NCBI GenBank assembly: GCA_032127875.1
Contig: JAQBHI010000126.1
Coordinates: 1,861-65,860 of the forward strand
Direction: 5' to 3'
DNA length: 64,000 bases
Source: Acidobacteriota bacterium
GTDB taxonomy: Bacteria; Acidobacteriota; Vicinamibacteria; Fen-336
Shown here: positions 1 through 19,670 of the stretch, piece by piece
How the letters are laid out: each line of letters starts with the position of its first letter
How positions within the stretch are numbered: position 1 is the stretch's first letter
Notes under the pieces: model-generated
The model's input: only the letters and a program-made list of their open reading frames with translations
Database searches by the model: none
What the model was told of the DNA's origin: nothing
Position numbers and translations under genes: made by a program

Positions 1-34
1 GAGGTGCATGCGACATGAGAAGACCATCGGTAAG

Positions 35-118
35 CCGTGTGCCGGAAATCGGCACGCACGGTTTGAAAGGGGGGATCAGGAACCCGGGCTCGCAAGAGCA
101 CCGCGCCTGATCCCTACC
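35..118 (+). promoter_or_regulatory. Structured leader upstream of ORF 120-545. Hairpin 35-61 is followed by TTTG. A long-range stem GGGATCAGG(72-80)/CCTGATCCC(106-114) encloses a GCTC-GCAA-GAGC GNRA hairpin (88-99) and ends 5 nt before the ATG.
   Basis: Inverted repeats read directly from the sequence. The 3' arm of the stem abuts the start codon at 120. Confidence 0.3.
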
Positions 119-119
119 A

Positions 120-545
120 ATGGCCGACCCCTTCACGCCAAAGGACGCAAACGTGGACGTGGCCGCGGTGATGGAAACGATTCGCGAGCGCATCCGACGG
201 CGGGCGGATGCCTTGCCCCTGGAAGAGGCCGTCGCCCGGCGCCTGCGGGCGCTTGCGGACTCCGATCAGCTGGATCCGGACCTGCTCGAACACTTCCTGG
301 CGGGGGACGCGCGCTGGAATCTATCGCCAGACTACAGGATCGTGACGCATCGCCGTGGCCCTGCCGCGAGCCTGGTCGTGGCTGCGAAGCGGCTGGTGCG
401 GCCGTTCGTGCGGCTCTACACCGACCCGATCTTCGAGCGCCAGGCCCAGATCAACCTGTACCTGCTCCACGTCATAGAGACGCTCCTGGAGGAGACCACG
501 CGGCTGCGTCGGGAGCTGTCGAAGCCGAAAGGCCATGAGACCTAG
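120..545 (+). CDS. hypothetical protein (141 aa)
   Basis: ORF with balanced amino-acid composition, not R/P-rich. It is followed by a G7/C7 hairpin plus T5 terminator-like structure. Confidence 0.45.
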   Translation: MADPFTPKDANVDVAAVMETIRERIRRRADALPLEEAVARRLRALADSDQLDPDLLEHFLAGDARWNLSPDYRIVTHRRGPAASLVVAAKRLVRPFVRLYTDPIFERQAQINLYLLHVIETLLEETTRLRRELSKPKGHET

Positions 546-550
546 GCAGC

Positions 551-726
551 GAGCGGCGGATTCACTCCGCCGCGAGCGGCTGGGGGGGAGCGCGAAGCGC
601 GCGGGGGGGTGCGCCGTGCCGTTACCCCCCCGTTTTTCCGACGAGAAGGCGGCGGATTCACTCCGCCGCGCGCGGCTGGGGGGGAGCGCGAAGCGCGCGG
701 GGGGATGCTTGATTCGGTACCCCCCC
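551..726. repeat. Tandem structured intergenic repeat. A ~56-bp unit GCGGCGGATTCACTCCGCCGCG(A/C)GCGGCTGGGGGGGAGCGCGAAGCGCGCGGGGGG occurs twice (553-609 and 649-704), each followed by a G-run / 15-nt loop / C7 stem.
   Basis: Two near-identical copies with one a/c mismatch. Each unit contains an 8-bp hairpin GCGGCGGA-ttcac-TCCGCCGC and a GCGCG-aag-CGCGC hairpin, flanked by G6-7 runs. Confidence 0.6.
603..637 (+). terminator. Putative intrinsic terminator: G7 (603-609), 15-nt loop, C7 (625-631), then TTTTT (633-637).
   Basis: GC stem followed by a T-run downstream of ORF 120-545. Confidence 0.4.
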
Positions 727-1928
727 GAGATTGTCTATTGAGGCTGGCGTTCGTCGTCCAGCGCTACGGCCTCGAGGTGGCAGGCGGCGCGGAACTTCAC
801 TGCCGCTGGCTTGCGGAGCGCCTCGCGCGGACGCACTCGGTGGAGGTCTTCACGACCCAGGCCCTCGACCACGTGGGCTGGACCCACGGCTATCCTGCCG
901 GCGCGGCGAACGTGAACGGCATTCCCGTCCACCGCTTCGCGGTCGCGCGCGCCGCGAGCCCGCGTACGGTCGCCTCGCTCTCGAACCGCGTCTTCAAGCT
1001 ACCCCACACCCGCGAGGACGAGGAGGCCTTCGTGCGGGCGCTGGGGCCCGAGTCGCCCGACCTCGTGGCGGCAGTGGTGGCCGCCCGCGAGCGCTTCGAC
1101 GTGTTCGTGTTCTTCTCGTACCGCTACTACCACAGCTATTACGGCCTACCCGGCGTGCGCGAGAAGGCCGTGCTCGTGCCGACCGCCGAGGAGGACGACG
1201 CCCTCGGCCTCGGCGTCTATGCCGAGCTGTTCCGCATGCCGCGCGCGATCGCGTTCAACACGCCGGAGGAACGGGGGCTGATCGAGGCCGCCGCGGGCGG
1301 CACGAGCCTGCCGGGCCAGGTGGTGGGGTGCGGGCTCTCGCTGCCCGAGGCCCAGATGGCTCCCGAGGCCGACCAGCGCTTCGGCCTCACGCGACCCTTC
1401 CTTCTCTACCTGGGCCGGATCGAGCCGAAGAAGGGCTGCGGGCTGCTCTTCGCCTACTTTCAGACGCTGGCTCGCGACTTGGGCAGCGGACTCGACCTGG
1501 TGCTCGCGGGTCGCGCCACGATGCCCCTGCCGGATCACCCCCGCATCCGCCACCTGGGCTTCGTGACCGAAGAGGAGAAGGTCGGGCTCCTCAAGGGCTG
1601 CGCTGCGCTCGTGATGCCGTCTCCCTACGAGAGTCTCTCGCTCGTGTTGCTGGAGGCCTGGGCGCTCGGCGCTCCGGTGCTGGCGAACGGCCGCTGCCGG
1701 GTACTGCGCGGGCAGTGCCTCCGCTCGGGCGGGGGACTGGCCTACATCGGCTACGAGGAGTTCGCCGCGGCCGCCGGGCTTCTGCTCAAAAGGCCCGATC
1801 TCGGGGCTGCGCTGGGCCGCCAGGGTCGTGCCTACGTCGAACGCGAATATGCCTGGGAGCCCGTCCTCGCCAAGCTCGATTTGGTTTTCGCGGAGGCGCT
1901 CTCCCCCAAGCCGCTCGCGCCCGAGTGA
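705..1928 (+). CDS. glycosyltransferase family 1 (GT4-type, retaining)
   Basis: C-terminal GT1 core motifs (LYLGRIEPKKG...GFVTEEEKVGLL...ESLSLVLLEAWALGAPVLA, an E-x7-E-like motif). Start chosen at ATG 705 (MLDSVPP...); this ATG lies in the loop of a G6/C7 hairpin. Confidence 0.8.
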   Translation: MLDSVPPRDCLLRLAFVVQRYGLEVAGGAELHCRWLAERLARTHSVEVFTTQALDHVGWTHGYPAGAANVNGIPVHRFAVARAASPRTVASLSNRVFKLPHTREDEEAFVRALGPESPDLVAAVVAARERFDVFVFFSYRYYHSYYGLPGVREKAVLVPTAEEDDALGLGVYAELFRMPRAIAFNTPEERGLIEAAAGGTSLPGQVVGCGLSLPEAQMAPEADQRFGLTRPFLLYLGRIEPKKGCGLLFAYFQTLARDLGSGLDLVLAGRATMPLPDHPRIRHLGFVTEEEKVGLLKGCAALVMPSPYESLSLVLLEAWALGAPVLANGRCRVLRGQCLRSGGGLAYIGYEEFAAAAGLLLKRPDLGAALGRQGRAYVEREYAWEPVLAKLDLVFAEALSPKPLAPE

Positions 1929-1949
1929 GTCGGCCGCTCGCCGCGGCTT

Positions 1950-3116
1950 CTAGCTCTTGCCCTTGAGCTCGAGGTCGAGGTGGAGCGTGAGGCGCTCCAG
2001 CTTCTTGTTGCCGACCAGCTTCAGCGTCAGCGCGTCTTCGACGATTTCCTCGCCGTTCTCACCCTCGAACACCAGGTGCAGTCGCAGGCCGGAGGCGCCT
2101 TTCAAGAGTCGGGCCGGAACGTCGACAGTGTTCTTGCGCCGCAGCTCCTGCTTGGAGTCGCGCTCCGAGACGAGCATTTCCCGCAGGCGCCTGTCGGTGC
2201 TCCGCTCGTCCCGGGTCGCCACGGTTGCCGGCTTCGAGGTGCTCGTCATCGCACGCAGCCGCTCCAGTTCGCTCTGGATGTCGATATGCCCCTTGGTCTC
2301 GACCGCGCGCACCCGGTACTTGTCAGTGTCCTCCTCTGCAAACTCCACGTGAACGTCCTCGCCGTGGCTCGCACCCGCCAGGTGCGACAGCGGGTCGCCG
2401 GTAGCGGGCCTGCCCGATGGCTCGGCCGATAGCGGCACGAGCGGCGGCGGCACGCTGGGCGGAGCACTCGAGCCGCGCTGCGGCGCCGGCGCGGTCGACG
2501 CCGCGACGGCCAAGCGAGGCGCATCGACCGCCAGCTTTTTTCGCGTCGACTGGATCGCCAGCCGCGAAACGCCCTTGAGCGTCTCGAAGACGCCGACGCC
2601 GTGCAGGGCCGCGGCCTCGAACCACGGGAAGCGTTTCGGGTTCAGGGCCTCGTTCAGCTTCTCGACCGTGTGAATGTTGCGAATGTCGCGCTTGTTGTAT
2701 TGCAGCACGAGCGGCAGCTGGTCGACGGTCAGGCCCAGCTCGGCCAGGTTGGTCCCGAGGTTCGTGAAGGATTCCAGGTTCGGCTCGAGCGCCGCGATCT
2801 GGCTGTCGGCCACAAACACGACGCCGTCGACACCCCTCAGGACCAGCTTGCGCGTGGCGTTGTAGAAGACCTGGCCGGGCACGGTGTAAAGCTGCAGGCG
2901 CACCTTCATCCCGCCGATCACGCCCACGTCGATTGGCAGCAGGTCGAAGAACAGCGTGCGGTCCGTTTCGGTTTCGAGGCTGATCATCTCACCGCGCGAC
3001 TGAGGCGCCGTCTTCTGATGGATGAACTGCAGGTTGGTGGTCTTACCGCACAGACCCGGGCCGTAATAGACGATCTTGGCCGTCATCTGCATCGTCGTGT
3101 AGTTGAAGAAGACCAC
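1950..3116 (-). CDS. MglA-like Ras-family small GTPase (N-terminal ~195 aa) fused to a ~190-aa C-terminal extension of unknown function
   Basis: N-terminus is closely similar to MglA of Myxococcus xanthus as I recall it (KIVYYGPGLCGKTTNL...TETDRTLFFD...YTVPGQVFY...NKRD), then a Pro/Ser-rich linker and a charged C-terminal domain. Confidence 0.8.
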   Translation of the reverse strand: MVFFNYTTMQMTAKIVYYGPGLCGKTTNLQFIHQKTAPQSRGEMISLETETDRTLFFDLLPIDVGVIGGMKVRLQLYTVPGQVFYNATRKLVLRGVDGVVFVADSQIAALEPNLESFTNLGTNLAELGLTVDQLPLVLQYNKRDIRNIHTVEKLNEALNPKRFPWFEAAALHGVGVFETLKGVSRLAIQSTRKKLAVDAPRLAVAASTAPAPQRGSSAPPSVPPPLVPLSAEPSGRPATGDPLSHLAGASHGEDVHVEFAEEDTDKYRVRAVETKGHIDIQSELERLRAMTSTSKPATVATRDERSTDRRLREMLVSERDSKQELRRKNTVDVPARLLKGASGLRLHLVFEGENGEEIVEDALTLKLVGNKKLERLTLHLDLELKGKS

Positions 3117-3136
3117 GGTGAGCCGAGTTTAGCACG

Positions 3137-3607
3137 CTAGAAACCAATGCCGGCTCCAACGGAGAAGCGCTCGGTCATCGGCAGCAGCGCCTCTTCGGGG
3201 AGCGTGATCTTGCGGTACTCGCCCTTGACCAGCAGCAGCCCGAGGTTCACCTTCACCCCTAGCACGAAGTTGCGGACGATCCCGTTGTCGCTCCGTCCGC
3301 GGTCCGTCTGCCGATAGCCGCCGACCCCGAGGCCGGCGTACGGAACGATGCGTCCGAAGGCGGGCGCCACGAGCGCGCTCCCCACGGCCGACAACTGGCT
3401 CTGCTCCTGGATCTCGCCGAGCACGCGCGCGCCCTCGGCCTCGAAGTGGAGGATCTTGAAGAGGGTCACGCCGAAGGCCCCGCCGGCGCCCCCGGCCCAC
3501 GCGTCCCCTGGCCTGGCGATCGCCAGGAAAGCCGTGACTTCAGCAGCCTGGGCCTGGGAAAACCCGAAGAGGCTGACGCAAGAGAGCACGACGAGGCACC
3601 GCTTCAT
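3137..3607 (-). CDS. small outer-membrane beta-barrel protein (OmpW/OmpA-like 8-strand barrel)
   Basis: Signal peptide (MKRCLVVLSCVSLFGFSQAQA|AEV), alternating amphipathic beta-strand pattern, C-terminal ...GAGIGF with terminal Phe. Confidence 0.6.
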   Translation of the reverse strand: MKRCLVVLSCVSLFGFSQAQAAEVTAFLAIARPGDAWAGGAGGAFGVTLFKILHFEAEGARVLGEIQEQSQLSAVGSALVAPAFGRIVPYAGLGVGGYRQTDRGRSDNGIVRNFVLGVKVNLGLLLVKGEYRKITLPEEALLPMTERFSVGAGIGF

Positions 3608-3662
3608 CTAGATAAGTCTAGAAGATACAACGAGTTGTTTCAAGGCGAACGGGCTGGCCGGG
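3608..3662 (-). promoter_or_regulatory. AT-rich upstream region of the OMP gene. TTGAAA-N17-TAGACT sigma70-like element with a TCTAGA-n4-TCTAGA repeat overlapping the -10 and the start codon.
   Basis: Minus strand reads TTGAAAcaactcgttgtatcttcTAGACTtatctagATG. Local AT-richness in a 70 % GC genome. Confidence 0.3.
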
Positions 3663-3872
3663 CTACTCGACCTTGACGCGCCGGCCCTTGCGGGCTTCAG
3701 GGGCCGGGCGAGCTTCGTTGATGCGCTGGAGTTGCCACTGGCAAAGCAGGATCATGCCCTCGAGCACCTGGCGGCGTAGCTGCCGGGCTTTCCTGCGGTC
3801 GAGGCCCGCCTCCTCGAGGATCTCGGACAGCAGGCAGCACGCCTTCTTCGAGCGACTCTCATCGCGAGCCAT
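3663..3872 (-). CDS. small basic hypothetical protein (69 aa)
   Basis: ATG at 3870-3872 preceded by a strong SD (AAGGAGGaacATG) embedded in the last codons of the upstream ArsA gene, overlapping it by 14 nt. No recognisable domain. Confidence 0.4.
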   Translation of the reverse strand: MARDESRSKKACCLLSEILEEAGLDRRKARQLRRQVLEGMILLCQWQLQRINEARPAPEARKGRRVKVE

Positions 3873-5043
3873 GTTCCTCCTTGGTGCCAAACGCCACGCG
3901 CAGGCGCTGGCCCTCGAAAGCGGCGCCCAGCAGCCGGCGTGAAGCAAGCGTGCGCGGCAACGTGATGTTGCGGCGCTGGTTGTCGACCTGAACCACCAGG
4001 TCCTCGCCCCGGGTCCAGACTTCGATCTTGTCCTTCTCGGCGAAGGCCAGCTTCAGATACAAGGCGTAACCCTTGCCTTCCTTCTTGACCTCGAGCGGCT
4101 TTTCTTCGTAGAAGACCACTGTCGGGTCGTCGTCCCCGAAGACGTCGCGACCGAACTCCTCGAGCAGCTTCAAACCGACCATCTCCCGGTCGAATAGCCG
4201 GGCCGAGAGAAACGGCAACGGATCGAAGGCCTGGCGCGCGTCGGCGAGGTGTCCAGCCTGGATCGAGAACCAGCGGTCGAAGTAGCTCGAGCGAGCCTGT
4301 TCCGGCAGCACGCGGTTTGCGATCACGCAGTCGACGGGGAAGCCGAACAAGCCCAGGTACGTATGCAGGCGTTGCGACTCCTTGATCACCATTCGCTCGG
4401 GGTTGAGCACCAGGCGGATCGAGCTGGTCTTCGGGTCGCGCAGCAACGGTCCCATGCCTTCCATCTGCTGGTAGAGGGCCTTCACGGCGCCGAAGACCTC
4501 GTCCGAGGGCAACGGCATGTCGGTCATCCGCTGCGCCACCGGGCGCACCGAGCGCACCACCGTGCGCTGGATCGGGAAGATGCGCTGAAAATAGAAGTTC
4601 AGCATCTCGGGCACGCCGAGCATGCGCACGGTTTCGCCGGTCGGAGCGCAGTCGACGATGATCACGTCGTAGCTGCCGCTCTCGGCGTGGCGCTTGACGC
4701 GCAACAGGCTGAACAACTCCTCCATACCGGGCAGGATCGCCATCTCCTCGGCGACAGCGTCCTCCACGCCCTTGAAGGTCATGAAGCGCGTCAGCCAGTC
4801 GTGGATCACGCCCCAGTGGCTCGACAGCTCTTGGTTCACGTCGATCTCGAGCGCGTCGAGGTTCTTCGCGATGCGCACCGGCGCGGAGCCGGCCTCGACG
4901 TCGAAGGCGTCCGAGAGGCTGTGGGCCGAGTCCGTGGAGATCACGAGCGTGCGCTTTCCGAGCCGCGCCGAGAGCACCGCAGTGGCCGCGGACAGGCTCG
5001 TCTTGCCGACCCCGCCCTTGCCCGAGTACAACAAGATGCGCAT
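3859..5043 (-). CDS. ArsA/Get3-family ATPase with C-terminal HSP20-like (alpha-crystallin-like) domain
   Basis: Deviant Walker A MRILLYSGKGGVGKTS and ArsA signature DCAPTGETVRML. The C-terminal ~80 aa is ACD-like (GYALYLKLAFAEKDKIEVWTRGEDLVVQV...ITLP...FEGQRLRVAFG). Start fixed at ATG 5041-5043. Confidence 0.85.
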   Translation of the reverse strand: MRILLYSGKGGVGKTSLSAATAVLSARLGKRTLVISTDSAHSLSDAFDVEAGSAPVRIAKNLDALEIDVNQELSSHWGVIHDWLTRFMTFKGVEDAVAEEMAILPGMEELFSLLRVKRHAESGSYDVIIVDCAPTGETVRMLGVPEMLNFYFQRIFPIQRTVVRSVRPVAQRMTDMPLPSDEVFGAVKALYQQMEGMGPLLRDPKTSSIRLVLNPERMVIKESQRLHTYLGLFGFPVDCVIANRVLPEQARSSYFDRWFSIQAGHLADARQAFDPLPFLSARLFDREMVGLKLLEEFGRDVFGDDDPTVVFYEEKPLEVKKEGKGYALYLKLAFAEKDKIEVWTRGEDLVVQVDNQRRNITLPRTLASRRLLGAAFEGQRLRVAFGTKEEHGSR

Positions 5044-5045
5044 CG

Positions 5046-6212
5046 TCAGGAAACCCTGGCCCGTCGGCGCGGGCGGCCAGCGCTGGGTATCTCTCCGAAG
5101 ATCGCCGCGGCGACTTCGGCCAGGCCACGCAGGTCGTGCACGTCGGTCTCCAGCTCGGGAACCAGCACCGGGACCTGGCCGAGATCGACCTCGAGCCGTG
5201 CCAGGCTCTTGCGCTCCGCCCTGGCGACCAGGCGCTGTTCGCCCAACATGGCTACCAGCTTCTCGGTCAGCGACCTGGAGAGGGCAGGCGCCGGCCCACG
5301 GCCCGGCGCCGGAATGGCCTCGTCGGGATCGGGATGGAGGCGGTTCACGACCAGACCCACGAAGGGCATGCTCTTTTCCGCGAGGCGCCGGTGGAAATGC
5401 AGGGCCTCGTCGAGTGTGAGGCGCGCCGGGCTCGCCACCAGGACGAAGCCCGACGCAGGTTCTCGGAGCAGGGCGAAGACACGCGCCGCCCGCTCCTTGA
5501 AGCCATCGTACATGGCTTCGAAGGCGAGAAAGAACTCGGAGAGATCCTGCAGGAATTGGAGGCCGAGGTAGCGGTCCACGAGGCCGAGCACTGCCGCGCC
5601 GGTGCGGGTCGCGACCTTGAGCGTCAGGCGCCCTGCCGCGAAGTACGGCTTCAGGACGAAGCGCAAGATACTGGCGTCCAGGAAGCTCATCATGCGCTCC
5701 GGGGCCTCCAGGAAGTCGAGCGCATGACGCGTCGGCGGCGTGTCGAGGATCACCAGGTCGAAGCGCTCGTCCGCCGACAGCTCCAGCAGCTTCTCCATCG
5801 CCATGTATTCGTGCGTGCCAGCGAGCGCCGCCGACAGCTGTTGGTAGAAGCGGTTTTCCAGGATGCGCCGGCGTGCTTCGTCGCTGCTCGCAAAACGCTC
5901 TACGAGCGCATCGAAGGTGCCCTTCGTGTCGAGCGTCATCGCCCACATCTCGCCTCGGACCTTGAGGCCGAGGCGATGCAGCGGCAGCAGCCGCGGCTTC
6001 TGCGAGAGCTTGGAGAGGCCGAGGCTGGTGGCGAGGCGCCGCGACGGGTCGATGGTGCAGACGAGAACGCGACGGCCGAGCAGGGCCGCCCGGACCGACA
6101 AGGCGGCCGAGGTCGTCGTTTTGCCCACACCCCCCGCCCCGCACACGACGAGAATGCGGCGCTGCTCGAGGGCGGCGCCCAGACGCGCGGCGGCTCGCCG
6201 CTGCGCCCTCAC
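5046..6212 (-). CDS. ArsA/Get3-family ATPase (second paralogue)
   Basis: RILVVCGAGGVGKTT P-loop; DTPPTRHALDFLEAPE signature. GTG start at 6210-6212 overlaps the upstream TGA (GTGA). Confidence 0.8.
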   Translation of the reverse strand: MRAQRRAAARLGAALEQRRILVVCGAGGVGKTTTSAALSVRAALLGRRVLVCTIDPSRRLATSLGLSKLSQKPRLLPLHRLGLKVRGEMWAMTLDTKGTFDALVERFASSDEARRRILENRFYQQLSAALAGTHEYMAMEKLLELSADERFDLVILDTPPTRHALDFLEAPERMMSFLDASILRFVLKPYFAAGRLTLKVATRTGAAVLGLVDRYLGLQFLQDLSEFFLAFEAMYDGFKERAARVFALLREPASGFVLVASPARLTLDEALHFHRRLAEKSMPFVGLVVNRLHPDPDEAIPAPGRGPAPALSRSLTEKLVAMLGEQRLVARAERKSLARLEVDLGQVPVLVPELETDVHDLRGLAEVAAAIFGEIPSAGRPRRRARVS

Positions 6213-7213
6213 GCGGCCTCGAGGCGTTTCACGAGAAGGCGTAGGGCGTCCGGGCCGATCGGGTCCCCGAACAGGTAGGGCAGCGAGACCAGCGGGGCCT
6301 GGATGTCGCGCCGCAGGCGCTTTTCGAAGAACTGCGTCAGCTTGCGCCGGCGGATCTGGCGCCGGGCGGCGGCTAGTGCCGCGCCCAGATCGGCGTCGCG
6401 AGCGAGCCGGCCGCTGGCTCCCTGGGCGCACAGGCGCAACACGTCGGCTTCCTCTTCGTTCGTGAAACGGCGCTCATGGGCTGCATTCAGCACCGTCGCC
6501 GCGCAGCTGATGCCGAGCTCCTGCGTCGCGAGCCGGTAAAACCAGGCGGCCTCGACGGCGGCCATTTCCTCCGGGATCGCGACCACCACCAGCGCCGTTC
6601 GCCGCGCATCGCGCAACAGCGTGAGAATGCGCCGGGCATTCGCGCCGATTGGCCCGACGGGGACGGCCGCGGCCGCGGCCTGGGGCACTCTCAGGAACGA
6701 GAGGCCATGGCCGGTGGCCGGGGCGTCGACGATCACGAGGTCGAAGCGTGGCTTGCGCGACCAGCCTTGCGTCTGCTCCTCGAGCAGCATGATCTTGCCG
6801 AGGACCATCAGCTCCTTGAGGCCCGGCGCGGCCGCGAAGAAGCGGTGATAGATCGGGCTCGCGAGAACGCGCCGCGCCAGCGCTTCGATCTTCACGACAT
6901 GGCCGACGTATTCGTCCATCACGGCCTGGGGCCGGAGGTTGACCGTGAAGAGATTGGGTCGCGCCTGCGTGATCGAGCCGCCGGAATCGCTCGAGCCCAG
7001 GTAGCCTGCCGCCTCGCGGGGCGTATCGATTTCCACCAGCAGGGTGCGCTTGCCCCGCTCGGACGCCGCCAGCGCGAGCGCTGTGCCGGTGACGCTCTTG
7101 CCCACGCCGCCCTTGCCTGAGAGCACGAGCAGGCGCCTCTCGAAGAGCTGGTCGAGGATCACGCGGCTGGAGCCTAACATGCGGCGAATCGAATAGAATT
7201 CCGAGGCTTCCAT
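6209..7213 (-). CDS. ArsA/Get3-family ATPase (third paralogue, short form). True start may be the internal Met (MLGSS...) near 7180.
   Basis: LLVLSGKGGVGKS P-loop; DAPATGHGLSFLRVPQ signature. Confidence 0.8.
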   Translation of the reverse strand: MEASEFYSIRRMLGSSRVILDQLFERRLLVLSGKGGVGKSVTGTALALAASERGKRTLLVEIDTPREAAGYLGSSDSGGSITQARPNLFTVNLRPQAVMDEYVGHVVKIEALARRVLASPIYHRFFAAAPGLKELMVLGKIMLLEEQTQGWSRKPRFDLVIVDAPATGHGLSFLRVPQAAAAAVPVGPIGANARRILTLLRDARRTALVVVAIPEEMAAVEAAWFYRLATQELGISCAATVLNAAHERRFTNEEEADVLRLCAQGASGRLARDADLGAALAAARRQIRRRKLTQFFEKRLRRDIQAPLVSLPYLFGDPIGPDALRLLVKRLEAA

Positions 7214-7979
7214 GACCAGCCAGCTGCCCGCTGCGGCAAAGCAGAAGCCGCGCGTCGTGATCGTGATGCCGGCCTACAACGCGGCCAAGACGCTCGAGGA
7301 CACGTTCCGGGCGATCCCCGCCGGGTATTACGACGAGATCGTCGTCGTGGACGACCACAGCCGCGATGACACCACCGGACTCGCCGAGCGTCTCAACCTC
7401 AAGGCGATCCGCCACCCGCACAATGTCGGCTACGGTGGCAACCAGAAGACCTGCTACATGGAGGCGCTGCGCGACGGCGCCGAGATCGTGATCATGCTCC
7501 ACCCCGACGGCCAGTACGACCCGACGATCCTTCCCGAGATGGTCAAGCCGATCGCGGAAGGCCGGGCCGAGATGGTGCTCGGCTCACGCATGCTGACCCC
7601 CGGCGGCGCCAAGCGCGGCGGCATGCCGCTGTGGAAGCGCATCGCCAACCGCTGCCTCACGAGCCTCGAGAACCTGGCGATGGGCCAGAGGTTCAGCGAG
7701 TGCCACACGGGGTATCGGGCGTACAGCCGGCGCTTCCTGGAGACCGTGCCGTTCCTGCGCAATTCGAATGGCTTCGTGTTCGACACCGAGGTCATCTTCC
7801 AGGCCGTGCACTTCGGGCTGCCGGTCGTCGAGGTGCCGGTCTCGACCCGTTATTTCGACGATGCCTCGTCGGTCGGCTTCCGGGCGGGCGTCGTCTACGG
7901 TCTGGGCACGTTGTGGACGGCCACCCGCTTCCTGCTCCACCGAGCCGGGCTCGTCGAGTCCCCGAAGTTTCGGCGCTAG
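7212..7979 (+). CDS. glycosyltransferase family 2 (GtrB / dolichol-phosphate mannosyltransferase-like)
   Basis: N-terminal GT-A fold motifs (VVIVMPAYNAAKTL...EIVVVDDHSRDDT...MLHPDGQYDP). The ATG overlaps the ATG of the divergent ArsA ORF (CATG). Confidence 0.8.
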   Translation: MTSQLPAAAKQKPRVVIVMPAYNAAKTLEDTFRAIPAGYYDEIVVVDDHSRDDTTGLAERLNLKAIRHPHNVGYGGNQKTCYMEALRDGAEIVIMLHPDGQYDPTILPEMVKPIAEGRAEMVLGSRMLTPGGAKRGGMPLWKRIANRCLTSLENLAMGQRFSECHTGYRAYSRRFLETVPFLRNSNGFVFDTEVIFQAVHFGLPVVEVPVSTRYFDDASSVGFRAGVVYGLGTLWTATRFLLHRAGLVESPKFRR

Positions 7980-8205
7980 GCGCCGCTCAGTCCCTCGAAT
8001 GCCGGCTTTGGCCGTGCCACGAACCATCTCGTTCAAGCGGAACATCACCTGCGCGCGAGCGCCGCCACCCATGCGCCGGTAGCTCTCGATTTGAACCGCG
8101 TCAGCGTCCGGGCTCGTGTCCGCGGCGATCGGCATGCGGTAGCTTGGCACTCGGGCTCCAGGGCGCCCTTTGAGCCCGTCCCGCCATGGCGGCTCCTGTC
8201 CGAGC

Positions 8206-9888
8206 TCAGCGTCCAGCGACGAAGAAGTGGCCCGCGTTCTGGGCGTAGAGCCGGCCCTCGGCATCGATCGAGAGTGGCGTGTAGGCAGAGCCCAGAGGCC
8301 GTTCCAGGAATACGCTCCTGCGCAGCGTCCCGTCCGAACGGATCGCGTAGAGAAAGCCGTCCTCCGCGATCCCGAAGACGTCGCCATTGCGATCGAGCGC
8401 GGGGGCGTTGATGCACCATTCGAAGCCATTCGGATTGAGAAAATGCCAGTCGGGTGCGAGCGTGTCGCCGCGCAGCTGTGTCACGAAGTACTGGCCCTCG
8501 AGCGGATCGGTGGCGCAGCTTCCGCAGTAGGAGCCGACGCCGCCGTAGTGGTTGTCCTTGACCACGATGCTGTAGCCGGCGCCGGTCGCGCGCACCGCCG
8601 GAGTAGTGTCCCAGCCGAAGTCGTAGGCCGCCAGATAGCGACCGTTCGCGTCGAACTTCATCAGATGGCCGCGGGAATAGTTGTAGCGTGAGAACGCGCC
8701 GTAGAGGATGCTGCCGTCGGGTGCCACCACGGGTGAGGAGGACGAGAGGTCGGTCACTTCGCCGTCGCCGAGGCGGTTCGTCAGTGGGTTGACGCCGAGG
8801 CGGGAGCCGCTGCGGCAGCCGCCTGCTGCGCCGTTCGGCGGCAGCACACCTCCGCCCGAAGCCGGCACGCCGCAGCCGTCGGCGAAGCGCTCGCGCAGGG
8901 TCGATGTGAAGCGCGGCGACAGGTCGGCGTTCACGGCGACCAGGGAGCCGTAGCGGGCGTTGAAGTGCGCGCGGCTCACCGTGTACACCGTCCCGTCGTG
9001 CCCGATCACCGGCCCCACGTTGACGCCCGGCCGCTGAGAACCGCAGGCGGCGCTCGGCGGCGTCGCGTCGGCACTTGGGGGCCAGGGCAGCGGCTCGGTC
9101 GTGAAGCTGGTCAGGCACTCTGCGCGAGCGCCCGGCGCTCCGCTGACGATGTCGGCGTAACGGGCGAGGCTGGCACGCCCATCGCTCGTTACCCGCACGA
9201 GCCAGGCGTCCTGTACATCGCGCCGCCAGGGGTCGGCGGGATCGAGCCGCAGGGCGTTGTAGTAGATCTCGCCATTCGCTGTGGCGGCGAGTGGTCCGGA
9301 AGCGAAAATCCGGGGATCCAGCGAGGCGCCGAACGGATTGATGCGCGTGACCAACGAACCGTCGTTCACGTCGAGCTTGATGAGCGTCCCAGCGGCGCCG
9401 GGAACGTACAGGAATCCACCGGCGAGGGCGCCCTGATTCACGGGTTCCCAGCGCAGCACGCCGCCGGGAGGCACGGGCTTCCAGTCCGAGCGATAGTTCC
9501 AGATTTCGCTCAGGCTTCCGTTCTGCCAGTGCAGGCGCTTCCAGTTCCACTCCTGCGAGGCCCAGTTGTCCGGGCCCGTGTACGTGCCGGACTTCGTCAT
9601 CAGGAACACGTCGTCGCCCGAGGCCAGCGGCACCGGGTAGTGGACGAGTAGCGCCCCGCGGCCCGAGGTCTGGATCTCCTGTGGCACGAACGGATCGACG
9701 ACCGTCTCGAAGAGCAGGCGGTCCGGGCTCTGGGCAACGACATCGAGGGTGCCCGTGTGTTGCGGGTTCTGGCCCCATTGCGGCCAGGCCACAGGACCCG
9801 AGACGGGGGGCGTCCCGGCGCTCTCGTTTCCGCCACAGGAGGGCATCAGCAGAAGGCAAAGGACGCCGATCGGGGCTCGGGTGTTCAT
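8206..9888 (-). CDS. secreted hypothetical protein (signal peptide; W/Y/N/D/G-rich, beta-propeller-like composition)
   Basis: Start at MNTRAPIGVLCLLLMPSCGG. Composition is typical of exported proteins. The competing ORF 8045-9859 on the same strand is R-rich junk. Confidence 0.55.
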   Translation of the reverse strand: MNTRAPIGVLCLLLMPSCGGNESAGTPPVSGPVAWPQWGQNPQHTGTLDVVAQSPDRLLFETVVDPFVPQEIQTSGRGALLVHYPVPLASGDDVFLMTKSGTYTGPDNWASQEWNWKRLHWQNGSLSEIWNYRSDWKPVPPGGVLRWEPVNQGALAGGFLYVPGAAGTLIKLDVNDGSLVTRINPFGASLDPRIFASGPLAATANGEIYYNALRLDPADPWRRDVQDAWLVRVTSDGRASLARYADIVSGAPGARAECLTSFTTEPLPWPPSADATPPSAACGSQRPGVNVGPVIGHDGTVYTVSRAHFNARYGSLVAVNADLSPRFTSTLRERFADGCGVPASGGGVLPPNGAAGGCRSGSRLGVNPLTNRLGDGEVTDLSSSSPVVAPDGSILYGAFSRYNYSRGHLMKFDANGRYLAAYDFGWDTTPAVRATGAGYSIVVKDNHYGGVGSYCGSCATDPLEGQYFVTQLRGDTLAPDWHFLNPNGFEWCINAPALDRNGDVFGIAEDGFLYAIRSDGTLRRSVFLERPLGSAYTPLSIDAEGRLYAQNAGHFFVAGR

Positions 9889-10052
9889 GGCGGGAAAGCG
9901 TACCTCATCCGGGGGAGTTGATTGAACAGGCCGGATATTCATCTTGTTGATCGCCGAGCGATGAAGTGTGCCGGCTCTCGTGAACCAGTGCTGGACAGTC
10001 GGAGGCAACTCTGCTCGAATAGGCGAATAAAAGGCGAAACATCAGAAAAACC

Positions 10053-13000
10053 GTGTACGTCGAGCTCCATGCCGCTTCGGCCTTCTCGTTCCTGCGCGCT
10101 GCGTCCCTGCCTGAAGAGCTCGTGGCGCGCGCGGCGGAGCTGGGCTATCCAAGCCTGGCACTCGTCGATCGCGACGGCATCTCGGGCGCGCCGCGTTTCT
10201 TCAAGGCCGCGAAGGCCGCGGGCATCCGGCCGATCGTGGGCGCCGAGTTGAGCCTGCGCGGCGGGGGCGCGCTGCCGCTCGTCGTCGAGAGCCGAGAGGG
10301 CTACCAGAACCTGTGCCGGCTCATCACGCGCATGAAGGCCGGCGTGCCGAAAGGCACGGGGACGCTCGAGCTTACGGCCCTGGAAGGCAACGTCGCCGGC
10401 CTCGTGGCGTTGCCGGGAGTCGGGGCGCTGGGCCACCCGCCCGACACCGATCGGCTCGCGCATCTGCTTGCGGCTTTCGGCCCACGCAGCGTGGCGATCG
10501 AGGTGCAACGGCATCGCCGCCGCGAACAGGAGGCCAGGAACCGGGCGCTGCTCGACATGGCAGACAGCCTCGGCCTTCAAGCCGTCGCGACGAACGGCGT
10601 GCGGCATGCGCTCTCGCAGGGGCGGGCGCTGCTGGACGTGCTCACCTGCATCCGCGAGAAGCGGACGCTGGCCACGGCCGGGCGCCTGCTGGCCGACAAC
10701 GCCGAGCGCCAGCTGAAGGCGCCGCAGGCGATCGAGGCGCTCTTCCGCGATCGCCCCGAACTGCTGCGCAACGTGGCGGCGCTCGCCGAGCGCCTCAGCT
10801 TCACGCTCGACGATCTTGGCTACCGCTTCCCCGAGTACCCGGTGCCGGCGGGGGAGACGATGCAGTCGCACCTGGCGCAGGCGACCGACGCCGGCGCTCG
10901 CGAACGTTACCGGCCGTACCACGAGAAGGCCCGCCGCCAGATCGAGCGCGAGCTGGCGTTGATCGGCAAGCTGGAGCTGGCCGGCTACTTCCTCATCGTC
11001 TGGGACCTCGTGAACTTCTGCCGGCGAGAAGGGATTCTCGTTCAGGGTCGCGGCTCGGCGGCGAACAGCGCCGTCTGCTACAGCCTCGGCATCACGGCCG
11101 TGGACCCCGTCGGCATGGAGCTGCTCTTCGAGCGTTTCCTGTCCGAGGAGCGCGGCGAGTGGCCCGACATCGACCTCGACCTGCCCAGCGGCGGCAAGCG
11201 CGAGCGCGTGATCCAGTACGTCTACGAGCGCTACGGCGAGCGCGGCGCGGCGATGACCGCCAACGTCATCACCTATCGCGACCGCAGCGCCTCGCGCGAG
11301 ATCGGCAAGGCGCTCGGCATCCCGCTCACGGAGATCGAGCAGCTCGCGCGTTACATGCGCCGCTTCGAGTTCGTGGACCCGGACGACACGCTCGCGAAGC
11401 GGCTGCGCGAAGCGGGCTTCGACACGGGCGACTCGCGCATCCGGCTGTTCGCACGGCTGTGGGGCGAGATCCAGGACCTGCCGCGGCACCTGGGCCAGCA
11501 CTCGGGCGGGATGGTGATCGCACAGGGCGCCCTCGACAGCGTAGTGCCGCTGGAGCCGGCCTCGATGCCGAGCCGGGTGATCGTGCAATGGGACAAGGAG
11601 GACTGCGCCGACTTGGGGATCATCAAGGTCGACCTGCTCGGCCTCGGGATGCTGGCGGCCCTCGAGGACTGCATCTCGATGTTGCGTGGGCGCGGCGTCG
11701 AAGTGGACCTTGCGCACCTGCCGCAGGACGACCCGAAGGTCTATGCGATGCTGCGGGAGGCCGACACCGTTGGCCTGTTCCAGGTCGAGAGCCGCGCCCA
11801 GATGGCGACGCTGCCGCGCCTGAAGCCCGAGCGCTTCTACGACCTCGTGGTCGAAGTCGCGATCATCCGGCCGGGACCGATCGTGGGCAAGATGGTCCAC
11901 CCGTACCTGGACCGGCGCGCCGGGCGCGAGGGGGTCCGCTATCCGCATCCGTCGCTTGAGCCGATCCTCGCCCGCACGCTGGGCGTGCCACTGTTCCAGG
12001 AGCAGCTGCTGCGCATGGCGATGACGGCGGCCGGCTTCACCGGCGGCGAGGCCGAGGAGCTGCGCCGGGCCATGGGTTTCAAGCGCTCGCAGAAGCGGAT
12101 GGCCTCGATCGAGGCGCGGTTGCGCGCGGGCATGCTGCGGAACGGCATCACGGGCGAGGCCCAGGAGCAGATCGTGCGCTCCATCGCCTCGTTCGCGCTG
12201 TACGGGTTTCCCGAGTCCCACGCCGCGAGCTTCGCACTCATCGCCTATGCCAGCGCCTACCTGAAGGCCTACCATCCGGCGGCCTTCGTGGCGTCGCTGC
12301 TCAACAACCAGCCGATGGGCTTCTACCATCCGACGACGCTCGTGAAGGACGCGCAGCGCCACGGAGTGCGCTTCGAAGCGGTGGACGTGACGCGAAGCGA
12401 CTGGGACGCGACACTCACGGACGGCGGCGTGCGTCTCGGGCTGGGTTGTGTCGCGGGCCTGCGCCGCGAGGCGGGGGAGCGGATCGTCGTCGAGCGCGCA
12501 GGCGCAGCGTTCGCATCGCTGCAGGATTTCGTCGACCGCGCCTCGCTGCGCCAGGACGAGTTGCGGATCCTCGCCGAGATCGGCGCGCTCAACGCCTTCG
12601 GACTGACTCGGCGGAGTGCCTTGTGGCAGGTGGAGCGCGCGGCGCGCCCGCGCGGGCCGCTGCTACGCGACGTTCCCGAGGTGCTCGATGACTCACCGCT
12701 GCCGGAGATGACGTTTCCCGAGCGCCTGACCCGGGATCTTCGCGGCACGGGGCTCACGGCCGGCCCGCACCCGATGCTGCTCTATCGCGAATCGCTGGTG
12801 GCGCGCGGCGTGAGGCGCGCGGTCGAGTTGTCGCGGCTCGAGGACGGTGCGCGTGTGAGCGTGGCAGGCGCCGTGATCTGCCGGCAGCGGCCCGGTACAG
12901 CCAAGGGCTTCCTGTTTCTGACGCTCGAAGACGAGACCGGCCTCGCCAACGTGACGGTGCGTCCCGACCTGTTCCAGCGGGCGAAAGGCGTTCTGGTGAA

Positions 13001-13118
13001 CACCGGAATTCTCGAGGTCGAAGGCATCTTGCAAAACCTCGAAGGTACGTCGGTCCGTGCGCTTTCCGTCCGGCCTCTGGGCAAAGCCCCTATCTCGATG
13101 TCACGGAATTTTCGATAG
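10053..13118 (+). CDS. dnaE2: error-prone DNA polymerase (DnaE2/ImuC, Pol III alpha-type)
   Basis: 1021 aa. N-terminal PHP domain (MYVELHAASAFSFLRAAS...) and polymerase core motifs. The length matches DnaE2 rather than DnaE1. GTG start. Confidence 0.9.
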   Translation: MYVELHAASAFSFLRAASLPEELVARAAELGYPSLALVDRDGISGAPRFFKAAKAAGIRPIVGAELSLRGGGALPLVVESREGYQNLCRLITRMKAGVPKGTGTLELTALEGNVAGLVALPGVGALGHPPDTDRLAHLLAAFGPRSVAIEVQRHRRREQEARNRALLDMADSLGLQAVATNGVRHALSQGRALLDVLTCIREKRTLATAGRLLADNAERQLKAPQAIEALFRDRPELLRNVAALAERLSFTLDDLGYRFPEYPVPAGETMQSHLAQATDAGARERYRPYHEKARRQIERELALIGKLELAGYFLIVWDLVNFCRREGILVQGRGSAANSAVCYSLGITAVDPVGMELLFERFLSEERGEWPDIDLDLPSGGKRERVIQYVYERYGERGAAMTANVITYRDRSASREIGKALGIPLTEIEQLARYMRRFEFVDPDDTLAKRLREAGFDTGDSRIRLFARLWGEIQDLPRHLGQHSGGMVIAQGALDSVVPLEPASMPSRVIVQWDKEDCADLGIIKVDLLGLGMLAALEDCISMLRGRGVEVDLAHLPQDDPKVYAMLREADTVGLFQVESRAQMATLPRLKPERFYDLVVEVAIIRPGPIVGKMVHPYLDRRAGREGVRYPHPSLEPILARTLGVPLFQEQLLRMAMTAAGFTGGEAEELRRAMGFKRSQKRMASIEARLRAGMLRNGITGEAQEQIVRSIASFALYGFPESHAASFALIAYASAYLKAYHPAAFVASLLNNQPMGFYHPTTLVKDAQRHGVRFEAVDVTRSDWDATLTDGGVRLGLGCVAGLRREAGERIVVERAGAAFASLQDFVDRASLRQDELRILAEIGALNAFGLTRRSALWQVERAARPRGPLLRDVPEVLDDSPLPEMTFPERLTRDLRGTGLTAGPHPMLLYRESLVARGVRRAVELSRLEDGARVSVAGAVICRQRPGTAKGFLFLTLEDETGLANVTVRPDLFQRAKGVLVNTGILEVEGILQNLEGTSVRALSVRPLGKAPISMSRNFR

Positions 13119-13122: not shown

Positions 13123-14040
13123 TCAGGCGCTGGGAACGGTTTCGTCCCCGCCGGCGTGTTCCAGGTACGACAACATGCCGCCCGCGAGCAGCGCGGTGTA
13201 GTCCATTGCCAACTCGAAGTTGTCCTCGAACACGTCCAGCAGGCCTTCGATCGTGCCGTGAAGGGCTCGCACGGGCGTCAGGGTGGTGGCCGAGAACCAG
13301 TGGCGGACCTCGGCCACCGCCTCCATCGCGCCGATCGCGTGGGGATGGCCCACCTCGAAGCTGAGCTTGTGCGCCTGCGAAGCGCAGCCGACACGACCGT
13401 CGACCACCAGCAACACGTAGGGGGCGGGATCGGCCTCTGCCCACAGTGAGACGCCGGCGTCGAAGTGGACCTCGGTGAGGCCGCGAGACAGCTCAGCGAG
13501 GGCGTTGATGCTGCCGCGCGCGAAGGGCGTCATCTGGCGTAGAAAATGGATTCGTTCCACGAAGTCGAGTTGACCCGAGGCAAGATCCGTCGGCGGGGGT
13601 GAGGCTGGGAACTGCTGCGGCCCGACGCGCTGTTGCACCGAGATCGCCCAGCGAGAGAGGTATTGGAGCGTGCGGTGCACGATCACGAAGTGGTCCTCGC
13701 AGACCTCGAACAGTGCGTCCGCGTCGAGCTCCAACGTGAAGCTGTCGACGTCCGCGATTCCAAGGTAGCCTCGGCTGTCCCGGGCGAGCACCGCCAGGGC
13801 GCCCATCGGCGTTCCCGGTCCTGCGCCGGCGACCGGGGTGCCCCCCCGGGAGGCGCGGATGTAGCCATCGAGCACGAACTGGATCCGGCTGACGGGTTCG
13901 CCCTCGCGTTGCACGACCGCGTCCTTCGGGAACGACCGCTCGCGGAGCAGCTCCGCGAGCGCCGCCAGCGAGTCGTTTGGCAGCTGTGAGAAGGCCGGAA
14001 CCTTTTTCAGATAGAGGATCCGCTCCAGCGTGCCGATCAT
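13123..14040 (-). CDS. tandem cyclic-nucleotide-binding (cNMP) domain protein
   Basis: Two CAP-family effector-domain-like halves (ERSFPKDAVVQREGEP... and a second in the C-terminal half). Confidence 0.65.
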   Translation of the reverse strand: MIGTLERILYLKKVPAFSQLPNDSLAALAELLRERSFPKDAVVQREGEPVSRIQFVLDGYIRASRGGTPVAGAGPGTPMGALAVLARDSRGYLGIADVDSFTLELDADALFEVCEDHFVIVHRTLQYLSRWAISVQQRVGPQQFPASPPPTDLASGQLDFVERIHFLRQMTPFARGSINALAELSRGLTEVHFDAGVSLWAEADPAPYVLLVVDGRVGCASQAHKLSFEVGHPHAIGAMEAVAEVRHWFSATTLTPVRALHGTIEGLLDVFEDNFELAMDYTALLAGGMLSYLEHAGGDETVPSA

Positions 14041-14050
14041 CCCGCCCCGT

Positions 14051-17484: not shown

Positions 17485-19368
17485 ATGGCGGCAAGTGCGA
17501 AGCGCGCGGCAGCGGCCGACGCGGATCCGGATTTCTCCCCGAGCCGCTACATAGCGCGGATCAGCCTGGACACCGGCAAGGAGATGCCCGGTCCGATCGA
17601 CCCCGAGGAGTTGCTGGTGCACGCCCACCGCGACCGGCATCCGGTCGAGGTGGCCGCGCAGTTCGTGGCGAACCGCGTCGTCGGGCTGACCGGCAAGGAA
17701 GCCGTCGTGCGTCGCGGCCTGAAGGCCTTCAACACGCTGGGTCGATGGCTCGTGAGCGGCGTGGGGGCCGCCTCGGGCAGCCGCGCCGTTGCGGAGCGGG
17801 CGAAGCGGCTGATCGGCGTCGTCGATCCCGGATTCGCCTTCCGCTTTCGCGAGCCGACGCACCTCTCCGACCGGCAGCTTCGGGAACGGGTGAGGAAGCT
17901 GCAGGGCGATGCGGCCGTGCGCCTCAAGGCGCGGGGTCGGAACCCGCGGCTCCGGATCCTCATGACGGGCGCCACCGGCTTCGTCGGCAAGGAGATCCTC
18001 AGCCAGGTCGCTTCGGACCGGCGCGTGGCGGAGCTGGTCGCGGTGCTGCGCCCCGAAACGCTCCGCGATCTGAAGACGAAACAGGTCCTGAAGGTGCTCT
18101 CGCCGGCGGAGCGTGGGGCGCTGCTCCTGAAACGGCTGCGTATCACCGGGACCCGCGCGCAGCGCTTCCGCTTCGTGGCCGGCGACATCGAGAAGCCCAA
18201 CCTCGGCATCGCGGCCGGCGAGATCGCCCGGCTCCGCAAGACGCTCACGCACGTGATTCATTGCGCCGCGAGCGTTTCCTTCGACGACCCCTACGAAAGC
18301 TCGTTCCGAGCCAACGTGCTCGGTTCCCTGAACGCGCTGCGCTTCTCGCTGCAGATCCAGCAAACGCCCGGCTCCGCCTTTCTCCACCACGTCGCGATCG
18401 AGACCTCCTACATCCACGGCCGGAAGAAGCGTTCGATCGCCCAGGAGCGCGCGCTGGTCTTCCCGCGGCACTTCTACAACAACTTCTACGAGCTCACAAA
18501 GGCGATGGCCTCGATCGAGACCGACCGCTTCCTCGTGGCGCGAGGCTTGCGAGTCGTGCAGCTCTTGCCTTCGATCGTGATCGGCGAGGCCCGCACCGGG
18601 AACAACCGCGGCGACCTGAAGGTCGTGAACGCGCCGATCAACGCCTTCGGCCGCGCCAAGGAGGCGGTGGATCGCTCGCACGGGGATCTGCTGGGCATGC
18701 CGAAGGCGCGCGTCATCGCTGCGCTCGCCTGTGTCTTTCCGGGCGACCCGAGCGCGGAGATGAACCTGGTCCCGGTCGACCGCGTCGCCGCCGGGATCCT
18801 GGCGGCGCTCGGCGTGAGCGCGGCCATCGGCGTGCGCATCCACCTCGCCACCGACAACCGGATTCCCTCCGAGGACATGCTACGCATCGTCCACGAAGAG
18901 CTCGGCGTGCAGGTGCGGCTGGCCGACCCCACGCTGTATCGCAACCTGACGATGCCGCTCGTGAAGACCGTCTTGGAACGCGTCGGCGAGCCCAGGCTGG
19001 GGGCGGCCCTGGAGCGGCTCTCGACGATCTTCGGCGCCTACGGGGAATGGGGTCAACCCGTCCACGAAGTCGGCAACGACGTGCGTCTGCTGGGCCTTGC
19101 GCTGCGGCGGCCCGACACGCGCCACGCCTTCCGCATGCTGTGCCGTCACAACCGCTACGTCCAGGAATACGGACGCGTGCGCGACGCCGACGAAGTCGCG
19201 CGCCGGGAGCATGCCTGGGAAGAGGCGATCGACGCCATCGAGCACCGGACCGGGCGCCAGGCGTCGGCGATCCCGGCGGGGGAGTTCAGGGAGCTGCTCG
19301 TCGAGGAGATCGACCTCAAGGGTTTCGAGCGACGTCAGCCAGTACGCAAACGCGGAGGCGACGAATGA
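17485..19368 (+). CDS. thioester-reductase-domain / fatty acyl-CoA reductase-like SDR protein (male-sterility NAD-binding family) with ~150-aa N-terminal extension
   Basis: RLRILMTGATGFVGKEIL Rossmann motif followed by a TR-domain-like region. 627 aa. Confidence 0.75.
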   Translation: MAASAKRAAAADADPDFSPSRYIARISLDTGKEMPGPIDPEELLVHAHRDRHPVEVAAQFVANRVVGLTGKEAVVRRGLKAFNTLGRWLVSGVGAASGSRAVAERAKRLIGVVDPGFAFRFREPTHLSDRQLRERVRKLQGDAAVRLKARGRNPRLRILMTGATGFVGKEILSQVASDRRVAELVAVLRPETLRDLKTKQVLKVLSPAERGALLLKRLRITGTRAQRFRFVAGDIEKPNLGIAAGEIARLRKTLTHVIHCAASVSFDDPYESSFRANVLGSLNALRFSLQIQQTPGSAFLHHVAIETSYIHGRKKRSIAQERALVFPRHFYNNFYELTKAMASIETDRFLVARGLRVVQLLPSIVIGEARTGNNRGDLKVVNAPINAFGRAKEAVDRSHGDLLGMPKARVIAALACVFPGDPSAEMNLVPVDRVAAGILAALGVSAAIGVRIHLATDNRIPSEDMLRIVHEELGVQVRLADPTLYRNLTMPLVKTVLERVGEPRLGAALERLSTIFGAYGEWGQPVHEVGNDVRLLGLALRRPDTRHAFRMLCRHNRYVQEYGRVRDADEVARREHAWEEAIDAIEHRTGRQASAIPAGEFRELLVEEIDLKGFERRQPVRKRGGDE

Positions 19369-19664
19369 GGGAAGAAGAAACGATCTTCGAGCGGCTGAAG
19401 ATGCGCGGCGAGGAGATGTTCCAGCAGGTGTCCGGCGAGCTGATGAACAACCCACGTTTCGTGGCCGCGATGCGCTCGGCGCTGCGCGGCAAGGAGAAAC
19501 TCGACGAAGCCTCGGCGCGTGCCCTGAAGGCCATGAACGTGCCGACGCGGAGCGAGTTCAAGAAAGCACTTCGCCGGATCGAGACGCTCGAGGCGGAGCT
19601 GGCCGCGCTCAAGGCCAGCAGCAAGCCGGCGTCGAAGCGGCGCCAGGCGAAGAAGGCGCGCTAG
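19366..19664 (+). CDS. phasin-family (PHA-granule-associated-like) small protein, 99 aa
   Basis: ATG overlaps the upstream stop (ATGA). ...NVPTRSEFKKALRRIETLEAELAALKA... resembles a phasin C-terminus. It appears in the track only as the tail of a different-frame ORF. Confidence 0.6.
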
Positions 19665-19670
19665 CTTTCA

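Follow-up and report, generated by a model that had tools for sequence, protein, structure and literature searches.

An acidobacterial locus of BagAB-like, Get3–α-crystallin and MglA-type genes: probably three neighbouring modules rather than one system

Do six closely packed genes, encoding three ArsA/Get3-like ATPases, a small basic protein, a predicted outer-membrane β-barrel and an MglA-like GTPase, constitute one system? The genes, here denoted A to F, lie on the minus strand of a 64,000-nucleotide (nt) stretch of DNA from an acidobacterium (Vicinamibacteria, Fen-336; GenBank assembly GCA_032127875.1, contig JAQBHI010000126.1, positions 1,861 to 65,860 of the forward strand), the whole of which is referred to as the window. 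The original prediction for this DNA was of a single six-gene operon, with the three ATPases forming a hetero-oligomeric Get3-like machine partnered by the barrel and the GTPase. From gene content, homologies and gene order we infer the transcription units, complexes and functions discussed below, and we consider it roughly two-in-three probable that the region is a class-level conserved Vicinamibacteria neighbourhood of three modules (A–B, C–D and E–F) and not one system. The features concerned are as follows.

6209-7213, minus strand: gene A, BagA-like ArsA/Get3-fold ATPase
5046-6212, minus strand: gene B, BagB-like ATPase, 388 amino acids (aa)
3859-5043, minus strand: gene C, Get3/ArsA ATPase with a C-terminal α-crystallin (ArsA_HSP20) domain, 394 aa
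3663-3872, minus strand: gene D, basic protein of 69 aa, isoelectric point (pI) 10.2
3615-3643, minus strand: promoter-like site TTGAAA-17-TAGACT, a consensus match within the 55-nt D–E gap
3137-3607, minus strand: gene E, candidate secreted small β-barrel outer-membrane protein, 156 aa
2532-3116, minus strand: N-terminal domain of gene F (residues 1-195), Group-1 MglA-type GTPase
1950-2531, minus strand: C-terminal extension of gene F (residues 196-388 plus stop), comprising a linker, helices and a β sheet

The six open reading frames (ORFs), with F spanning 1950-3116 as a whole, match the predicted gene coordinates exactly, and all have a coding-type GC content at third codon positions (GC3, 0.81-0.89) within surrounding sequence of 68% GC. 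Each junction was confirmed on the minus strand, bearing out the expectation of overlaps or gaps of at most 55 nt throughout: A and B share a GTGA stop/start overlap, in which the GTG start of B is read within the stop of A; C follows B after 2 nt; C and D overlap by 14 nt, with a GGAGG sequence 5 nt 5′ of the ATG of D; the 55-nt gap between D and E is AT-richer; and 20 nt separate E from F. The glycosyltransferase genes said to lie on either side were likewise found, as a GT2 gene (7212-7979; PpgS/AglJ-like) and a GT1 gene (609-1928). Neither a terminator-like site between D and E in the window, nor a riboswitch or leader RNA in the cluster (Rfam scan of window positions 1-12000), was found.

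The argument for separate modules begins with gene order in relatives, compared in loci gathered via homologues of F. By genome scan the closest relatives of the window are Vicinamibacteria (Acidobacteriota); one single-linkage neighbourhood clustering lumped spurious high-GC ORFs together and served only in part. Where contigs are long enough the order is constant (GT2<-, A-B-C-D ... E-F, <-GT1), and the A/B, B/C, C/D and E/F junctions are tight, with a maximum of 243 nt (E/F in locus L011); E adjoins F in 21 loci. The D/E junction behaves differently, as the D–E distance is at most 215 nt in seven loci and 700-3611 nt in 13 (20 loci, the window counted). The inserted genes differ by genome, and include a sigma-54 response regulator, a PadR gene with an FtsX permease, and a low-molecular-weight phosphatase; an opposite-strand Prok-JAB-like gene, of which the whole 64-kb window contains no copy, occupies the junction in at least nine loci. 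In the closest relative, whose F is 83% identical, the insert is an unrelated opposite-strand gene of 198 aa.

The Prok-JAB-like gene merits a brief description of its own. Its product is about 180-200 aa long. In L001-L006, L008, L012 and L014 the gene is found upstream of E in divergent orientation (for example at 8818-9417, minus strand, in L012, with a score of 24.3 bits, just below the cutoff of 25), and a sigma-54 response regulator gene often comes before it.

Within the D–E gap of the window, the TTGAAA-17-TAGACT motif is the only sigma-70-like site in positions 1500-8000, and it ends 7 nt 5′ of the ATG of E, before which there is no Shine-Dalgarno sequence; this arrangement suggests that E may have a leaderless-type start. 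The same motif recurs in the same register 5′ of E in seven of 22 loci by a strict pattern (the window and six others; background 0.004 per 200 nt), ending 6-10 nt from the ATG across loci. All six of the other loci carry inserted genes upstream of E, with the contig of one of them, L001, stopping before D. E and F would be transcribed from a promoter of their own immediately upstream of E, and in Vicinamibacteria a single transcript probably covers A, B, C and D.

Outside this class, F is found in other company. The original prediction would have the six genes kept together, yet in 61 acidobacterial loci from outside Vicinamibacteria (Thermoanaerobaculia, Holophagae and unclassified Acidobacteriota) neither A-D (by tblastn) nor E (by profile hidden Markov model, HMM) was detected within 10 kb of F, whose neighbours there are NrdR, HSP20, Lon, DnaJ/GrpE or DUF2520 genes. 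Many of the F-like genes in these loci nevertheless carry the C-terminal extension. The profile HMM of E matches in 21 Vicinamibacteria-like loci only, among the 82 F loci and the BagB-like loci searched.

The reverse comparison starts from B. The lists of B and F homologues were saturated by close relatives, and a distant BagB representative was therefore used as the query, yielding 80 metagenomic loci from a distant BagB clade, of which 79 remained after exclusion of one near-identical relative. Of the 60 loci whose upstream sequence is long enough, 54 have an A-like gene as the immediate upstream neighbour, on the same strand, whereas a C-like gene was found in a single locus (L119) of the 42 with enough downstream sequence. 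L119 is divergent and has the order A-B-C, its proteins being 35% (A), 44% (B) and 52% (C) identical to those of the window. No D, E or F was detected in the 79 loci, 31 of which have at least 3 kb of downstream sequence. This comparison points to A–B as an old, self-contained pair, which C–D appears to join essentially in the Vicinamibacteria lineage alone, with E–F as a further, separable neighbour.

In many BagAB-like loci (L089, L090, L092-L094, L098, L112, L114, L122 and L141) a divergent P-loop gene of ParA/MinD-like type ends approximately 0.2-0.8 kb upstream of the A-like gene.

Our division into modules thus draws on the D–E distances, the differing inserts, the motif 5′ of E, the occurrence of F without A-E, and the BagB-like loci without D-F. 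Several observations weigh against it. Gathering the forward loci via F biases that comparison, and the reverse sample consists only of the 80 metagenomic loci nearest one distant BagB relative. The promoter was recognised by its match to a consensus and does not represent a mapped start, and 15 of the 22 loci fall outside the strict pattern. A resembles BagA only weakly (87.7 bits; equivalog cutoff 400). ABCD and EF, moreover, share a strand and lie no more than 3.6 kb apart in all 20 informative Vicinamibacteria-like loci, such that some selective linkage between them is possible, and the lack of a terminator-like site between D and E would permit read-through from ABCD into EF.

A–B and C–D might also be independent of one another in function, as unrelated Get3-fold systems that lie side by side in Vicinamibacteria and whose ATPases do not cooperate. 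We regard this as unlikely: no insertion separates B from C, their spacing being 2 nt in the window, 205 nt in L014 and about 3-81 nt in the other 16 of the 17 relatives, and the A-B-C order recurs in the divergent L119. Independence would nonetheless account for the near absence of C-like genes from the diverse BagB-like loci (L119 being the one case in 42) and the complete absence of D, and Get3 proteins with an α-crystallin domain do occur alone in many phyla (PMC6593721).

The reading with which we began, in which one operon encodes a hetero-oligomeric Get3-like machine, with the MglA-like GTPase and the barrel guiding or accepting envelope proteins or machinery for polysaccharides, now appears very unlikely. 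The common strand, the tight spacing with no terminator-like site in the window, the constant proximity of ABCD and EF, and the glycosyltransferase genes that flank the set in many relatives are all as this reading would have them. They are outweighed by the opening of the D/E junction in 13 of 20 loci, where the insert frequently includes an opposite-strand gene, by the conserved promoter-like motif close to E, and by the existence of F without A-E in other classes and of A–B without C-F elsewhere. Synteny in Vicinamibacteria also runs past the six genes, through Aldedh, SLT/LysM, ComM, M23, SecA and DnaE genes; the flanking GT2, GT1, Aldedh, SLT, ComM, M23 and SecA genes, housekeeping genes among them, are about as syntenic as A-F, which indicates that the class-level linkage is not specific to A-F. 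As a C-type gene accompanies A–B in only one of 42 diverse loci, three paralogues in one machine is too strong a description; what stands of the proposed hetero-oligomer is a plausible A–B pair, consistent with PDB 6bs3 and with natural fusions described below. A functional tie between ABCD and EF is the least likely part of the picture. The combination of an ArsA triplet, an outer-membrane protein and MglA arises, on the three-module reading, from compact gene order at the locus, and does not merit listing as a new system.

Turning to the proteins themselves, the assignment of all three ATPases to the ArsA/Get3 fold was upheld. Each matches PF02374, their top NCBIfam families are BagA, BagB and GET3_arsA_TRC40, respectively, and profile searches do not place them in other SIMIBI families (ParA, MinD or Mrp). 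They are, as proposed, separate single-domain proteins of 334-394 aa and not a duplicated ArsA. The motifs ascribed to them fared less well: the deviant Walker A sequence KGGVGKT/S is present in A (GKGGVGKS) and C (KGGVGKT), but B has GAGGVGKT, and the signature D(T/A)xPTGH is literally fitted by none of the three, the corresponding residues being DAPATGH in A, DTPPTRH in B and DCAPTGE in C.

Gene A encodes 334 aa from its first ATG and 323 aa from an internal ATG at 7180. The latter is the likelier start; it is the one used in a separate gene call on the identical contig, and it abolishes a CATG start-codon overlap with the divergent GT2 gene. A scores 75.6 bits against PF02374, and its 87.7 bits for BagA, the top NCBIfam family, are far below the equivalog cutoff given above; among PDB entries it matches ArsA (1f48) at 1e-18 and Rv3679 (6bs3_A) at 3e-13. 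B is much closer to its namesake, scoring 343.8 bits against NCBIfam BagB over profile positions 11-368 of 371 (equivalog cutoff 521) and matching Rv3680 (6bs3_B) with an E-value of 1e-73 across residues 16-380, that is, with full-length homology. By these scores A and B are family-level relatives of BagA and BagB, not equivalogs. The BagB-like family as a whole comprises 1552 representative clusters at E<=1e-30.

The comparison with BagA and BagB of Mycobacterium tuberculosis (Rv3679 and Rv3680, deposited together in PDB 6bs3 as chains A and B) is informative in both directions. Shared features are two adjacent same-strand ArsA/Get3-fold ATPase genes with the A-type directly upstream, and, between B and Rv3680, a GAGGVGKTT P-loop without the signature lysine and a switch II of the form DTPP(T/S)R(H/N)ALDFL. 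The locus described here differs in that both proteins fall below the equivalog cutoffs (344 vs 521 for B, 88 vs 400 for A), in that the pair is followed by a Get3–α-crystallin gene and the small gene D, and in its acidobacterial host. The mycobacterial bagAB operon has been linked to tolerance of glycerol and nitric oxide (PMC10597346), and the pair is tied to tolerance of glycerol-derived and nitric-oxide stress (PMC10597346; PMC12216072).

A hetero-oligomer of A and B is plausible from these similarities, and would most likely be an asymmetric heterodimer like Rv3679–Rv3680 in which only A keeps the signature lysine. Such a pair may use ATP to handle hydrophobic or toxic cargo at the membrane. 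Single-chain proteins of 640-840 aa (P0250, P0262, P0277 and others) have a C-terminal half that matches B, and A matches the N-terminal half of P0277 (35% identity, E 8e-24), from which we conclude that natural A–B fusions exist. The fusions of a BagA half with a BagB half can be viewed as an ArsA-like pseudo-dimer version of the pair. A defence-system reading of the locus was considered and rejected, the sole PADLOC match being that of B to mad8, a partial, generic P-loop match of 30.9 bits.

C is an ATPase of a different kind. It scores 294.8 bits against PF02374 (residues 1-300) and 248.7 bits against TIGR00345, the TRC40/GET3/ArsA subfamily, above the cutoff of 135; the HSP20-like domain that one ATPase was predicted to carry was confirmed here as a PF17886 match (71.4 bits, cutoff 22.5; residues 324-385). 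Its PDB relatives include 5zme, 3zq6 and 3ug6, with 8elf (AtGet3d) aligning across residues 4-388. The active site is complete, with the canonical KGGVGKT and a switch I of sequence TDSAHS, and a stretch rich in Met and hydrophobic residues separates switch II from the C-terminal part of the ATPase domain. One Get3 domain followed by ArsA_HSP20 is the architecture of the 'Group 6' bacterial Get3 proteins (PMC6593721) and of Get3d (PMC10248533; PDB 8elf/3igf), which has previously been recorded in some Acidobacteria (PMC6593721; PMC10248533). C is nevertheless not a Get3d in the strict sense, as it scores 147.6 bits against the Get3d/NosAFP equivalog of photosynthetic lineages (NF050088), under the cutoff of 325. 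Nostoc Get3d lacks a nucleotide site (PMC6593721), unlike C. The lineage of C is non-photosynthetic, and the small cysteine-bearing protein coupled to it has not been described for the group.

That small protein, D, agrees with its predicted description as small and basic. No meaningful relatives were found in Pfam, NCBIfam, PADLOC or the PDB (including a PDB profile search), and its homologues form 209 clusters of 61-94 aa for which Vicinamibacteria is the only taxon label. Residues C12, C13, C44 and W46 show no variation. In the AlphaFold2 prediction D forms a helical hairpin (residues 11-21 and 26-54) with a basic tail, at a mean predicted local distance difference test (pLDDT) score of 74. 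We take C and D to be translationally coupled, as indicated by the 14-nt overlap with its Shine-Dalgarno sequence, the tight spacing in relatives (-10 to +57 nt in 19 of them) and the invariant residues of D. Being translated from within the 3′ end of C and co-conserved with it, D stands out as the leading candidate for the role of C's partner or regulator, and the lineage-restricted coupling of a small cysteine-bearing protein to a Get3-type ATPase is a new element of this locus.

C would be a homodimer that, gated by ATP, serves hydrophobic segments as a holdase or targeting factor, with D as its partner or regulator; binding or targeting of tail-anchored or other hydrophobic clients by C is suggested by its family. 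A further step, to a bacterial relay of GET-like type in which a BagAB-like heterodimer, C and D together serve hydrophobic or membrane proteins in Vicinamibacteria, we consider quite unlikely; if true, D would be a dedicated partner or regulator, the first for any bacterial Get3 homologue. No partners were known at the time of the Get3d structure paper (PMC10248533). For bacterial Get3 homologues, C–D beside a BagAB-like pair, in a lineage that is widespread in soil, offers specific, testable candidate partners. The remaining interest of the six-gene region lies in this lineage-specific variant of the BagAB cluster, which adds a Get3–α-crystallin ATPase and a new small cysteine protein.

Arsenite or antimonite resistance of the ArsA type, with D as a metallochaperone acting through its vicinal cysteines, can hardly be credited and was rejected on scores and architecture, for although A, B and C all match PF02374 ('anion-transporting ATPase') and D has an invariant Cys-Cys pair and a third Cys, the ArsA equivalog scores are 48-83 bits (TIGR04291, cutoff 650) and 43-105 bits (NF041417, cutoff 800), none of the three has the duplicated A1-A2 organisation of ArsA, no ArsB, Acr3, ArsR or ArsC-like gene was seen among the neighbours scanned in 1-24 kb, and D resembles no Pfam or NCBIfam family, ArsD included.

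The outer-membrane assignment of E is partly upheld. E carries a signal peptide that ends AQA|AE, shows alternating hydrophobic strands and has GAGIGF at its C terminus, thereby sharing with PF13505 (OMP_b-brl) barrels the signal peptide, the strand pattern and a C-terminal aromatic residue, and nine of 12 orthologues match PF13505 over their full length (the best, in L082, at 35.6 bits with a cutoff of 28.7). The E of the window itself, however, lies under every threshold, with no PF13505 match at E<=0.1, and a PDB profile search gave no meaningful sequence relative. E is therefore described here as a candidate small outer-membrane β-barrel, on the basis of the Pfam matches of its orthologues.

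F belongs to the MglA family, as predicted. Residues 1-193 align without gaps to MglA of Myxococcus xanthus (6hjh, among others) with an E-value of 1e-73 and 59% identity, the match to Thermus thermophilus MglA is at 7e-64, and Ras/small_GTP families are also matched. The likeness to these Group 1 proteins (PMC4316618) extends to the P-loop (GPGLCGKT, not of the GTP-locked kind), the intrinsic arginine (in TDRTLFFD) and the catalytic glutamine (in VPGQ); an NKRD motif is also present. F would act as a GTP-dependent switch of MglA type for polarity or envelope machinery. It differs from the single-domain proteins of about 195 aa in being 388 aa long, with an extension of approximately 190 residues that is conserved in all 60 aligned homologues, and in being paired, in Vicinamibacteria, with the gene of a small outer-membrane protein.

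The extension consists of a Pro/Ala-rich linker, helices at about 280-292 and 304-320, and a confidently predicted four-stranded β sheet at about 325-384; the extension as a whole has no recognisable fold. A PilZ reading of the C terminus, from motifs seen by eye, was rejected in the absence of a Pfam PilZ match at E<=0.01. In L023, positions 9389-9835 match the extension only (residues 242-387, 29% identity), with no G-domain match; this segment is possibly a free-standing version of the extension, or else belongs to a gene with a frameshift.

Genes for MglA lie within four genes of mglB in 390 of 449 cases (PMC4316618). By contrast, a tblastn search with an approximate M. xanthus MglB sequence, which is a weak test, gave no matches in the window and the 82 loci, and the gene calls of L081 and L082 contain no Roadblock family member; in lacking an adjacent mglB, F resembles the orphan MglA of Bdellovibrio and SofG. 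With no mglB nearby, the GTPase-activating protein of F would be encoded elsewhere or replaced by the extension; that the extension has taken over regulation by MglB is, like the relay proposed for ABCD and separately from it, quite unlikely. A long-form MglA without a nearby MglB gene, in the three acidobacterial classes sampled, is a new finding in either case, and widens the known architectures of a well-studied polarity GTPase.

Elsewhere in the window, positions 30-117 (plus strand) match Rfam RF00029, group II intron domain V/VI, over the full model (44.6 bits, gathering threshold 40); the match ends 3 nt before an ORF at 120-545, and the intron body would lie upstream of the window start. 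Beyond the GT2 gene, 8206-10008 (minus strand) encodes a 600-aa protein with coding-type GC3 and no Pfam or NCBIfam family, at the position of which L081 has a gene of 561 aa. It is followed at 10053-13118 (plus strand) by a 1021-aa protein of DNA polymerase III alpha type (PHP, DNA_pol3_alpha, finger, HHH_6 and OB domains), which is short, of DnaE2-like length, and is conserved beside the cluster in L081, the closest relative. Positions 13123-16780 (minus strand) encode a 909-aa protein with TLC/MFS transporter regions and HEAT repeats, beside a 311-aa cyclic-nucleotide-binding protein. A run of genes at 17485-24030 resembles one for lipid or polymer storage; it encodes a fatty-acyl reductase-like NAD_binding_4 protein (627 aa), an acyltransferase (402 aa), a patatin-like phospholipase (395 aa), a phasin (145 aa) and a PhaR-like PHB_acc_N regulator (213 aa).

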